From the IMG/VR virus record IMGVR_UViG_2695420871_000010: a DNA stretch of 13,814 bases; one strand, written 5' to 3'. Positions 7,084-9,695 of this stretch are shown here, piece by piece. The first letter of the stretch is position 1. Each line of letters opens with the position of its first letter. Position numbers and translations under genes: made by a program. The notes below the pieces were generated by a model, which was not told the origin of the DNA, did not search any database, and saw nothing but the letters and a program-made list of their open reading frames with translations. This stretch comes from a virus (taxonomy: Duplodnaviria > Heunggongvirae > Uroviricota > Caudoviricetes).

Positions 7084-7170
7084 TCCTGGTGGGGGTGGCC
7101 TGTCCACGGGGCGGGCGGTTCGCGGAAAAAGGCGTATTTTTTGATTTTTATGTCACCATCACCACCAGTT
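7084..7170 (+). promoter_or_regulatory. Conserved element copy A (cos-like; candidate packaging site or late promoter)
   Basis: ctcctggtgggggtggcctgtccacggggcgggcggttcgcggaaaaaggcgtatttttt… is near-identical over ~60 bp to 9613-9695. Contains ACG-GGGCGGGCGGTT-CGCGG followed by an AT-rich GCGTATTTTTTGA segment, resembling the lambda cos junction (…ACG|GGGCGGCGACCT|CGCGGGTTTTCGCTATTTATGA…, recalled from memory). Confidence 0.45.
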
Positions 7171-7505
7171 TAAGTTATTGATATATGGCAAAATAAAAAT
7201 TTTTAGTGTCGAATTAGGTTGTTTTTTGTTCGAAGCCGGAACGTTCCCGAAAGCATTTACAAAAAACAGGCGCAAAAAAAAGCGCCCCGATGGTGCCACC
7301 GGAGGCGCTTTGTCAGCGACAAAGGATACTGCCACTACCGAAATGATGAGTCTTAATTGTGCTGGCGTGGCAATAATTAGTCAATTCTTTTGCTGGTATG
7401 ACAAAAATCAGAAAACACATAATCTGATTTTTAGATAGAAAATGATTTATTTACCAGTTTTATCGATCAATAATGATGCCCGTTAATCATAACGGAGGCA
7501 GACTT

Positions 7506-7700
7506 ATGCCAGAGAACAACAGCAGAAAACCGGATAAAAGTGCAACAGTGCACATAGACGCCGGAACTATGGAGAAGCTCGAACGCTATCAGCAGTTCAT
7601 TAAAAGTCATCACCCTGGAATGCCAGTACCCACGAAAGGGCAGATTGCGAGAAGCGCGGTTGAATACTGGTACAGGGCAACGTTAGGAGCCTGGCTATGA
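7506..7700 (+). CDS. Small ribbon-helix-helix-like protein (64 aa) coupled to the protease-capsid gene
   Basis: ATG at 7506 with GGAGG RBS 7 nt upstream; …ATVHIDAGTMEKLERYQQFIKSHHPGMPVPTKGQIARSAVEYWYRA has a strand-helix-helix pattern; TGA stop overlaps the ATG of the next gene (ATGA at 7697-7700). Confidence 0.5.
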   Translation: MPENNSRKPDKSATVHIDAGTMEKLERYQQFIKSHHPGMPVPTKGQIARSAVEYWYRATLGAWL

Positions 7701-9577
7701 AAACATGGTTTTCCATTAAGGCTATGGCTGATGTTGTACATGTACGCATTTATGACGAGATCGGCGGGTACGGTGTAAAAGCATCGGCACTTACTGACGA
7801 GATCAACGCGTGCGGTAATGTGCCTGAAATCCATCTTCGCATCCATTCACCTGGTGGCGACATCTTTGAAGGGCTGGCTATCTATAACGCCCTGAAAAAT
7901 CATCCGGCAAAGAAAATTGTACACATTGAAGGCATGGCGGCTTCTATGGCCTCGTTTATTGCCATGTGTGGCGATCACATCGTTATGCCTGAAAACGCGA
8001 TGATGATGATACATGCCCCCCGTGGTGTTACTGCCGGAGTGTCGGGCGACGTTCGCCGCTTTGCTGACCTGATGGACAAGCTGGGCGACACGATGGCGGA
8101 AACCTACGCCGGAAGAACGGGCAGGAGCAAACAGGAAATCACCGCCATGATGGAGGCGGAAACCTGGATGGATGGCAATGAGTGTAAGGCTAATGGCTTC
8201 GCAGATGAGGTTATACCCGCGATTACAGCAATGGCCAGAATTGAATCAAAACGAATCGGAGATTTTTCGAATATGCCGGAAAATATTAAAAGCATGATCA
8301 GCCAGAAAACTGGCAGCGGAGAACAGGAACGACTCAACGGGATACGTGAATTGTTTGGCACGTTCAATGGAAGATATAACGACCTGGCTATAAGTTGTCT
8401 TGCTGATTCAGGCTGTAGCGTTGAGGATGCACGCGAACGCCTTTTACTCACTATGGGTAAAGAATCGACACCGACAAACAAAACCACCCCCGCAAATCTT
8501 TACTACGCGTACACGGATAACGGCAACATAACCGGCGATGCAATGCGTCAGGGGCTTAATGCGCGTCTGGGACATGAACAGGCAGAACGCGGCAACCCTT
8601 ACGCCATGATGAGCCTTTTCGATATGGCACAGGCATCATTAACCCATCGCGGCATAAGCACAGGCAGCTACAGCACACGCTCGCAGATAGTAAACGCGGC
8701 ATTCACCCACAGCAGCAGCGATTTTACTTATATCCTTGCTGGTGGTGCTGAAAAATCCGTGCTTGCCGGATGGGAACACAGCGGCGAAACGTTCCGCCAG
8801 TGGACGAAAAAAGGTTCATTGTCAAACTTCCATGAGGCACGTCGTGTTGGCCTGAATGGCTTCTCTACATTAAACAAAGTGCCGGAAGGCGCGGAATATA
8901 AATACATCACCACCAGTGACCGTGGCGAACCAATCGCGCTGGCAACTTACGGAAATATTTTCAGCATTACCCGACAGGCGATTATTAACGATGACCTGAA
9001 TCAGTTAACAGTTATCCCACAGGCAATGGGGCGAGCAGCCGCCAGAACGGTGGGTAATCTGGTTCATCTGGTGCTGACAGGAAACACAAAGCTTTCTGAC
9101 GGTATACCGCTGTTCAGCAAAAAACACGGAAATGATATTGATAACGGAGTCAGCACTACAGGGCTTGGCATTGCACGCCGTGCAATGCGCACACAGGGGG
9201 ATGAAAACGGTGAGGTGCTGAATATTGTGCCAAAATTCCTTCTTGTTCCTGCGGCTCTGGAAGACAGAGCGTTGCAAATGGTTAACTCAACCACGCCTTT
9301 CGGTGCCGATACAAACAGTGGTTCATATAACCCGTACCACAAACAACTGGATATTATTGTCGATCCCCGCCTTGATGAAGTCAGTGATAAGCAATGGTAC
9401 ATGCTTTCAGCACAGGGAACGGACACAATTGAGGTGGCTTATCTTGACGGTAATGACGAGCCTTACCTTGAGCAGCAGGAGGGCTTTATTGTTGACGGTG
9501 TGGCCTGGAAGGTCCGCATTGATGCTGGCGTTGCTGCTCTGGATTATCGCGGAATGGTCAGAGCGATTTCTTCATGA
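7697..9577 (+). CDS. Fusion of ClpP-like prohead serine protease and HK97-fold major capsid protein (626 aa)
   Basis: N-terminal ~190 aa: ClpP/S14-like motifs (…IHSPGGDIFEGLAIYNAL…, GMAASMASF around the putative catalytic Ser, MMIHAP around the His). C-terminal ~350 aa: phage major-capsid-like sequence (…GEPIALATYGNIFSITRQAIINDDLNQLTVIPQAMGRAAARTVGN…WYMLSAQGTDTIEVAYLDGNDEPYLEQQEGFIVDGVAWKVRIDAGVAALDYRGMVRA). A linker of ~80 aa could act as scaffold. Confidence 0.8.
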   Translation: MKTWFSIKAMADVVHVRIYDEIGGYGVKASALTDEINACGNVPEIHLRIHSPGGDIFEGLAIYNALKNHPAKKIVHIEGMAASMASFIAMCGDHIVMPENAMMMIHAPRGVTAGVSGDVRRFADLMDKLGDTMAETYAGRTGRSKQEITAMMEAETWMDGNECKANGFADEVIPAITAMARIESKRIGDFSNMPENIKSMISQKTGSGEQERLNGIRELFGTFNGRYNDLAISCLADSGCSVEDARERLLLTMGKESTPTNKTTPANLYYAYTDNGNITGDAMRQGLNARLGHEQAERGNPYAMMSLFDMAQASLTHRGISTGSYSTRSQIVNAAFTHSSSDFTYILAGGAEKSVLAGWEHSGETFRQWTKKGSLSNFHEARRVGLNGFSTLNKVPEGAEYKYITTSDRGEPIALATYGNIFSITRQAIINDDLNQLTVIPQAMGRAAARTVGNLVHLVLTGNTKLSDGIPLFSKKHGNDIDNGVSTTGLGIARRAMRTQGDENGEVLNIVPKFLLVPAALEDRALQMVNSTTPFGADTNSGSYNPYHKQLDIIVDPRLDEVSDKQWYMLSAQGTDTIEVAYLDGNDEPYLEQQEGFIVDGVAWKVRIDAGVAALDYRGMVRAISS

Positions 9578-9581
9578 GAAC

Positions 9582-9606
9582 AAGGCGGCAGCAGCCGCCT
9601 TTTTTG
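9582..9606 (+). terminator. Intrinsic terminator after the protease-capsid gene
   Basis: Stem aggcggc (9583-9589) / gccgcct (9594-9600), loop agca, then tttttt. Confidence 0.7.
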
Positions 9607-9612
9607 CGGGTC

Positions 9613-9695
9613 CTCCTGGTGGGGGGGGCCTGTCCACGGGGCGGGTCGGCGCGGAAAAAAGCGCATTTTTGTGGTTTTATCGTCATCATCATCAT
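9613..9695 (+). promoter_or_regulatory. Conserved element copy B (cos-like; candidate packaging site or late promoter)
   Basis: ctcctggtggggggggcctgtccacggggcgggtcggcgcggaaaaaagcgcatttttgtgg… is a direct repeat of 7084-7170 but differs in the central 12-mer (GGGCGGGTCGGC versus GGGCGGGCGGTT). Confidence 0.45.

Follow-up and report, generated by a model that had tools for sequence, protein, structure and literature searches.

Why should a short conserved element stand twice in a satellite genome, once on either side of its capsid genes? The question is raised by a 13,814-nt stretch of viral DNA (IMG/VR record IMGVR_UViG_2695420871_000010, Caudoviricetes), the whole of which we call the window, and which holds a phage-inducible chromosomal island (PICI) of the EcCIO42 type, about 9.9 kb long and located between cspD and clpS. 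An initial annotation had read the two copies, here called A (upstream) and B (downstream), either as cos-type packaging sites for the terminase of a lambdoid helper phage or as helper-activated late promoters. Here we find that both copies are almost certainly derived from cos, and that they are probably lambda-type cos sites (cosQ-cosN-cosB) through which the satellite is packaged by the route proposed below. The cos reading is supported by homology to the region upstream of phage terS, by the spacing of cosQ and cosN and by conserved cosB blocks, and it is also backed by the published functional double cos of the related island EcCICFT073 (PMC6092414, PMC6739421). By its anatomy copy B is a complete cos that could both initiate and terminate packaging, and it is very likely the working packaging site of the island; copy A has kept cosN and cosB with a mutated cosQ, and by analogy with lambda should initiate packaging but not terminate it.

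A repeat search recovered the two copies as one family (7052-7180 and 9582-9710; 129 nt, ungapped identity 71%). Aligned with MAFFT they agree in 76% of columns, with near-identity over the leftmost 60 nt, and their likeness dwindles some 150 nt rightward. A 33-nt core, CTCCTGGTGGGGGTGGCCTGTCCACGGGGCGGG, lies at 7083-7115 without a mismatch and at 9613-9645 with one; it found no match across 200 shuffles, and none is expected by chance. Folding shows that each repeat copy starts 2-3 nt past a G+C hairpin with a U6 run, such that the T-run of the terminator behind the SSB gene abuts cos copy A and the terminator behind the capsid gene abuts cos copy B (Table 1). The same order of terminator and then cos recurs in sister islands and at cos1 of EcCICFT073. 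A consensus scan for promoters and terminators overlooked both of these + strand terminators, textbook hairpins with U6 runs, and the negatives of that scan are weak when taken alone. Between the copies lies the capsid module, comprising a 75-aa open reading frame (ORF) and the gene for a ClpP-protease/major-capsid fusion. The repeated element, its position directly after terminators and its placement around the capsid module had all been described in the initial annotation, and all are confirmed.

The origin of the element is apparent from phage genomes. In a search of a phage collection, both copies matched, along some 150-200 bp, the lambdoid phages 1720a-02, CP-1639, VT1-Sakai, several Shiga toxin 2 (Stx2) phages, mEp460 and Fels-1, and alignment with lambdoid cos regions places both as homologues of the segment just upstream of terS/terL. 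Every phage match falls between the lysis genes (Rz) and terS/terL, the TerL being lambda-A-like; this interval between lysis genes and terminase is where cos is located in lambda. The homology begins on the left at the T-run/cosQ and ends on the right about 125 nt (copy A) or about 165 nt (copy B) past cosN, and the shared piece is therefore the size of a cos. From cosN to the start of terS the distance is 160 nt in phages of the A type and about 200 nt in those of the B type. The sole hint on DNA ends comes from phage mEp460_4F5, whose assembly has a break 5 nt to the left of the predicted nick. A Gifsy-2-like protease/capsid fusion is encoded by the phages that have this cos (PMC12315714).

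We compared both copies with the actual lambda record, placing nick positions by analogy with lambda, and the resemblance to the lambda cos junction that the initial annotation had suggested is borne out in cosQ, in the left half of cosN and in their spacing. The lambda junction consists of GGGTCCT, 23 nt and then GGGCGGCGACCT followed by CGCGG; copy B has GGGTCCT, 24 nt and then GGGCGGGTCGGC, and copy A has AGGTACT, 24 nt and then GGGCGGGCGGTT followed by CGCGG. Thus the GGGTCCT found about 30 nt left of the nick is a feature of copy B and not of copy A. Both copies read ACG and then, at the predicted nick, GGGCGGG, and so contain lambda's conserved cosN left half GGGCGG with the CG before it, a half-site and dinucleotide that are conserved among lambda-like phages (PMC4669245). 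The two 12-mers are unlike at positions 8, 9, 11 and 12, and the differences of lambda from both copies are confined to positions 7-12, which are naturally variable and of little weight for cutting (PMC4669245). The initial annotation was thus right that the central 12-mers differ, but its corollary that at most one cosN could be functional does not stand, as the differences all fall in the variable positions 8-12. The cosN string of copy B is identical in prophage loci with a VT1-type TerS (e.g. L236, L240). What truly sets the copies apart is that copy A has an altered cosQ and that their cosB modules are of two different kinds.

Three further observations concern these motifs. Looking for a third cos in 10118-10527, we found no ACGGGGCGG-type motif anywhere in the window beyond the two copies. 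A contig scan with CACGGGGCGGN{3,7}CGCGGAAA was too unspecific to be of use and returned chiefly chance matches in G+C-rich genomes. A sequence that agrees with the Chi octamer GCTGGTGG in seven of eight positions, CCTGGTGG, occurs between cosQ and cosN at 7086-7093 and 9616-9623 and also in the cos of A-type and B-type phages; sites of the mEp460 type carry CCCGGTGG instead, so the likeness is possibly meaningless.

Right of cosN an A/T-rich tract follows in both copies, and the block it contains at +41 to +60 has the place of R3 in lambda. The match to the IHF consensus is exact in copy A (TAAGTTATTGATA), and in copy B the R-like block is followed by an inverted repeat and a third direct copy, an order of R-like blocks that corresponds to R3-I1-R2-R1, the layout of complex cosB sites (PMC9026076). 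These blocks were assigned by eye and by conservation among phages, and they fall where R repeats and an IHF site would be looked for in a cosB, within about 120-160 nt right of cosN. Both window copies retain all of the cosB blocks that phages conserve, and their departures from the phage consensus lie mostly in columns that are variable among phages too.

The two cosB modules can be connected to two kinds of terminase. We retrieved 80 prophage loci by TerS alignment and sorted them on TerS residues 1-66. All 25 copies of the A-type cosB (TATGGCACCATCACCACC) adjoin a TerS N-terminal domain of the MDRELKNLHLNIS...KNISPAGGHESNLKLYRL kind, and all 31 copies of the B type (TATCGTCATCATCATCATG) adjoin one of the MDGELKNMKLNIN...ADVPLAPGSNEKKKLYLL kind; cosB type thus tracks the type of the TerS N-terminal DNA-binding domain in 56/56 phage loci, and two more cosB types pair with two more TerS domain types. 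The Stx-type phages 1720a-02 and VT1-Sakai agree at 96-100% identity as far as cosN and once more from about terS codon 80 onward, and between these limits (4049-4430 in the 1720a-02 locus L003, compared with the VT1-Sakai locus L004) a block of about 380 bp, comprising cosB and the TerS N-terminal domain, has 36-74% identity. This block looks like a swapped packaging-specificity cassette, much as in lambda and phage 21, where the cassette is made of the same modules (cosB and the TerS N-terminal domain) and the 1720a-02/VT1-Sakai swap likewise has near-identical flanks (PMC4669245). The homology, the anatomy and the co-variation of cosB with TerS are direct observations.

The GGGTCCT heptamer is present in 157 of the 161 other cos copies examined in phages and islands, and AGGTACT is found, besides the window, in seven of eight A-type copies in islands and in 0/76 phage cos copies. 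The cosN tract of the A-type copies likewise comes in five versions among the eight island copies and in one version among 25 A-type phage copies. Lambda requires cosQ for the cut that ends a packaging run and can initiate without it, and termination depends on cosQ and cosN, whatever the type of cosB (PMC4669245).

We infer cleavage at the island's sites, two helper specificities and a role for the cosQ change, in a scheme of the following kind. When a lambdoid helper with a head and terminase of the Gifsy-2/CP-1639/Stx-phage type grows, the helper TerS would bind an island cosB, TerL would nick cosN, and packaging of island concatemers would proceed rightward, in the direction of cosB, up to the cutting of a later cos. 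No Rpp adaptor would take part, the island having instead copied the cosB of the helper itself. Copy A, by its cosB, would serve a TerS domain of the 1720a-02 type and copy B one of the VT1-Sakai type. Since the two cosB modules belong to different TerS-linked types, two helper classes could probably pick up the island; whether the island does use two helpers we consider plausible, at a little short of an even chance. Copy A, which is without the termination signal, would not bring a run begun at copy B to an early end; such a run would reach copy A after 7.4 kb and continue to the next copy B, at 9.9 kb. A bolder version holds that the pair is a deliberate two-adaptor design, in which two cosB cassettes address two TerS classes (those of Stx- and Gifsy-type lambdoids) with no Rpp-like protein and with the upstream cosQ knocked out; this is tentative and on balance unlikely. 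That the loss of cosQ in copy A is itself adaptive seems more doubtful still.

Several points weigh against this scheme. The cos of this phage class has been assigned via homology to lambda and sequence analysis by the Feiss laboratory, and the G/C tract of cosN between ACG and CGCGG varies from 10 to 12 nt across copies, leaving the exact nick sites uncertain. Since cosB and terS lie within 200 bp of each other, their physical linkage could partly explain the co-variation. While the lambda/21 specificities offer a parallel, those of the two TerS classes here are predicted ones; the predicted recognition helix, HRQTVAAR, is identical in both classes, with the differences in the wing region, and a CATCA core is common to both cosB types, so the two specificities may overlap. 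The seven AGGTACT copies are probably one inherited change and not seven independent ones, since the islands that carry them share their left flank. Lastly, cosQ is intact in both members of the co-oriented cos pairs of islands L188, L191 and L205, and there is thus no rule of obligatory cosQ loss.

The alternative that survives best is that only copy B works, copy A being either a decaying duplicate, left perhaps from an earlier helper, or a decoy that binds TerS and so interferes with the phage. The 2-nt change in cosQ unseen in 76 phage cos copies and the five versions of an otherwise uniform A-type cosN are what such an idea would lead one to expect, and in EcCICFT073, where two cos sites both function when cloned and lambda and phi80 transfer the island only if it has cos1, the second site is dispensable and its deletion raises transfer (PMC6092414), a further point against our scheme. 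However, copy A has a cosB that, in the blocks conserved by phages, agrees with their consensus at about 95% identity in islands otherwise different from one another, which makes free decay of copy A unlikely; several cosN variants occur in B-type phages too, and initiation in lambda works without cosQ (PMC4669245). We regard a relic or decoy as improbable, if still a serious contender.

Far less likely is the second reading of the initial annotation, in which helper-activated late promoters drive the capsid gene and the 93-aa gene that ends the island, or a wider form of it, in which the copies control transcription in some other way; their place behind terminators would then make expression dependent on a helper factor. 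Each copy does lie between a terminator and a downstream gene, those two genes have no other identified promoter, and the distance from copy B to the 93-aa gene equals that from the phage copies to terS. Yet what the copies share coincides exactly with the phage span of cosQ, cosN and cosB, which late phage transcripts read through from an upstream promoter and in which we know of no promoter. The downstream gene, moreover, starts about 365 nt past the predicted nick of copy A and about 200 nt past that of copy B, and no sigma-70-like site was found on the + strand in 7000-7473 or 9577-9836 by the consensus scan that had missed both terminators. The promoter reading thus finds no support, with the + strand scan empty and the span that of a phage cos, and the homologous sites of EcCICFT073 act as cos (PMC6092414); a promoter that depends on an activator is conceivable, if improbable.

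A structured RNA acting on transcripts through the terminators, either a put-like antitermination element or a small RNA, is most improbable: the copies are about 100 nt long, conserved, G-rich, in the same orientation and next to terminators, superficially like the paired put sites of HK022, but they stand after the terminators and not before them, neither matches Rfam at E<=1, they fold unlike each other with unremarkable energies (z -2.0 and -1.6 in single-sequence folding), and the match to cos at the DNA level accounts for their conservation.

Lambda-type cos sites on a satellite, the reading we prefer, can be set beside systems already described. The present elements share with lambda, 21, phi80 and Gifsy-1, the phages with a complex cosB, the order cosQ-cosN-cosB, a GGGTCCT about 30 nt left of the nick and the GGGCGG after ACG (PMC4669245, PMC9026076), as well as, in the predicted cosB, A/T richness, an R3-like block lying at about +41 to +60, a match to the IHF consensus and, in copy B, an inverted R block. 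They differ from those of lambda-like phages in standing in a satellite and not upstream of terS, and in the non-consensus cosQ of copy A; compared with lambda itself, the right half of cosN differs, the G/C tract is variable in length and the R sites rest on inspection and conservation.

The closest parallel among satellites is EcCICFT073, which has in common with the present island the integrase, AlpA, primase, SSB and capsid genes, a last gene whose 93-aa product is 75% identical to that of the window, and two cos sites near the 3' end with a helper-like cosQ and cosN, cos1 following a terminator. In the CFT073 genome cos1 and cos2 are located on either side of rppA in opposite orientations, carry lambda's cosN GGGCGGCGACCT, and cos1 comes right after its terminator. 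The sites of EcCICFT073 are thus inverted and flank rppA, whereas those of the present island share one orientation and have the capsid gene between them, and the former have the cosN of lambda while the latter are of the Gifsy/Stx-lambdoid class. The cosB of EcCICFT073 cos1 is unlike the helper's, and the site depends on RppA, a protein of 144 aa that by binding to TerS steers it to cos1 (PMC6739421, PMC9026076); in the present island, in contrast, the cosB halves are 85-92% identical to phage cosB. Rpp-dependent PICIs have an rpp gene beside cos, encoding a TerS mimic of 139-154 aa with a winged helix-turn-helix, and none was found in this island: a tblastn search of the window for an Rpp or TerS homologue returned none (best E = 2.7, with RppA as query), and in BLASTP comparisons the 75-aa and 93-aa proteins had no similarity to TerS or RppA. 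Another PICI has a 258-bp cos region in common with its helper at 90% identity (PMC10111431).

More distantly, the cos-type Staphylococcus aureus pathogenicity islands (SaPIs) SaPIbov5 and SaPIbov4 also combine the helper's cos with a diverged homologue of the helper capsid protein, Ccm (PMC5052747, PMC8569155), and two putative cos sites have been reported in SaPIbov4 (PMC6092414). They differ in their Gram-positive hosts, in exploiting HNH-dependent cos phages and in having no sequence relationship to the present elements, and it is for the cos-type SaPIs that formation of small capsids has been demonstrated.

How common is such a pair of sites? We retrieved 80 related islands through the 93-aa gene, and 50 of them have one to three recognisable cos sites, with lambda-type and Gifsy-type mixed. 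The A+B layout around the capsid fusion recurs in at least five IMG/VR islands. The junction from terminator to copy A is covered to at least 80% in 126 of 5,426 complete E. coli genomes, and that from the capsid gene end through copy B to the 93-aa gene in 144 of them; the A- or B-copy junction is thus present in about 2.5%, many of them from Shiga toxin-producing E. coli (STEC) or bovine (cattle) isolates. Other arrays also occur among the sister islands. Five IMG/VR islands (L135, L195-L197 and L201) have three cos sites, a B-type (Stx/Gifsy) site upstream of a lambda-E-like capsid gene and a lambda-type pair, one of it inverted, before the 93-aa gene; the inverted copy seen in many islands has a cosB like that of lambda or of CFT073 prophage 4. 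An apparent third cos in L132 lies on a separate contig piece joined by an N, and was discarded.

Cos-type Gram-negative PICIs end in the 93-aa gene, which is conserved, always lies beside a cos site and, in some of the sister islands, is separated from cos by a terS homologue. In the window it takes the slot that terS has in B-type phages: its ATG lies at +198 from the nick predicted for copy B, and terS of these phages starts at about +200. An AlphaFold2 model of the product of this gene, of low confidence (pLDDT 66, pTM 0.40), has three helices.

The remainder of the window is consistent with its assignment (Table 1). Its gene content, as predicted, is that of a PICI: about 10 kb in length, a unidirectional zone of int, alpA, pri and late genes, an attachment (att) site of its own and an incomplete set of virion genes. 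All of the genes from the integrase to the 93-aa gene are on the + strand, bordered by direct repeats (654-722 and 10527-10583). These repeats contain tandem AATGGTGTAGT(C/T)AAT units and TTGTTCG motifs, and are likely attL and attR with arm-type sites of the integrase, fixing an island length of about 9.9 kb. The element is found in E. coli 042 as well, in the same layout and at the identical cspD/clpS site; the island of that strain, EcCIO42, has been listed among Gram-negative PICIs (PMC6092414), and in the literature searched the cos sites of EcCIO42-type islands were nowhere described. The best phage relative of the capsid fusion is that of CP-1639 (51% identity over the full length).

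Some features outside the cos sites were also apparent. Just past the primase gene, 6084-6260 is crowded with inverted and direct GGTGAACAGT repeats and is probably the island's replication origin; weak Rfam matches to microRNA families in the same region were dismissed as chance, caused by the repeats. Between cos copy A and the 75-aa ORF, the minus strand of 7268-7384 resembles a small-RNA unit, with a promoter-like TTGACT-17 nt-CACAAT (7384-7356), two hairpins and a U8 run (7304-7268); its 91-nt fold has -32.3 kcal/mol (z -2.6), at least the terminator-proximal end is conserved in sister islands, and any RNA made would be antisense to transcripts running from cos A into the capsid genes. 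To the right of the island are clpS, clpA and type I-F CRISPR repeats, of which three (GTTCACTGCCGTACAGGCAGCTTAGAAA, 60-nt period; Rfam CRISPR-DR4) lie at 13599-13746, right after clpA and toward the end of the window.

Table 1. Coordinates in the window of the two predicted cos sites, their terminators and the genes of the island.
Feature	Position	Strand	Basis or remark
Intrinsic terminator 3' of SSB gene	7051..7075	+	hairpin AAGCCGGA-GCAA-UCCGGCUU, U6; -15.8 kcal/mol, z -3.9
cosQ-equivalent heptamer, copy A, AGGTACT	7078..7084	+	2/7 positions off GGGTCCT; 31 nt left of predicted nick
Predicted cosN cohesive-end 12-mer, copy A, GGGCGGGCGGTT	7109..7120	+	CG on each side as in lambda
cosB, copy A, 1720a-02/CP-1639 type	7121..7235	+	91.5% identity to 1720a-02 over 7079-7231
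R3-like block, copy A cosB	7150-7168	+	conservation
IHF-consensus match TAAGTTATTGATA, copy A cosB	7171-7183	+	conservation
R2-like block, copy A cosB	7200-7214	+	conservation
Intrinsic terminator 3' of capsid gene	9582..9605	+	hairpin AGGCGGC-AGCA-GCCGCCU, U6; -15.5 kcal/mol
cosQ, copy B, GGGTCCT (as lambda cosQ)	9608..9614	+	31 nt left of predicted nick (lambda 30)
Predicted cosN 12-mer, copy B, GGGCGGGTCGGC	9639..9650	+	alignment with lambda junction
cosB, copy B, VT1-Sakai/Stx2-phage type	9651..9803	+	85-88% identity to VT1-Sakai and Stx2 phages over 9606-9803
R3-like block, copy B cosB	9679-9696	+	
IHF-like site, copy B cosB	9701-9713	+	
Inverted R2-like block, copy B cosB	9732-9749	+	
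R1-like block, copy B cosB	9757-9774	+	
Integrase	746-1984	+	
AlpA	2307-2603	+	
D5-type primase	4253-6058	+	
SSB	6615-7037	+	
Capsid module (75-aa ORF and 626-aa fusion), between the two cos copies	7473..9577	+	Pfam and PHROG matches
75-aa ORF	7473-7700	+	phrog_4934, unknown function
ClpP-protease/major-capsid fusion, 626 aa	7697-9577	+	Pfam PF00574 and PF25209; PHROG match
93-aa gene, last of island	9836..10117	+	phrog_1561, unknown function

Satellites with one or two helper-type cos sites are already established, and the only fresh element here is the pairing of two cosB cassettes that fit two classes of TerS, with the cosQ beside one cassette disabled. For a common E. coli satellite, the most likely packaging route is described and candidate helpers are named, namely lambdoid phages of the CP-1639/1720a-02 and the VT1-Sakai/Stx2 types. 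If the use of two cosB types is real, it would be a second route by which satellites hijack helpers, through direct mimicry of two kinds of cosB instead of an Rpp adaptor, and would tie the spread of the satellite to the induction of Shiga-toxin phages. Should the two-adaptor design hold as well, the mixed arrays of one to three cos sites in related islands would widen helper range generally, Shiga-toxin phages included.

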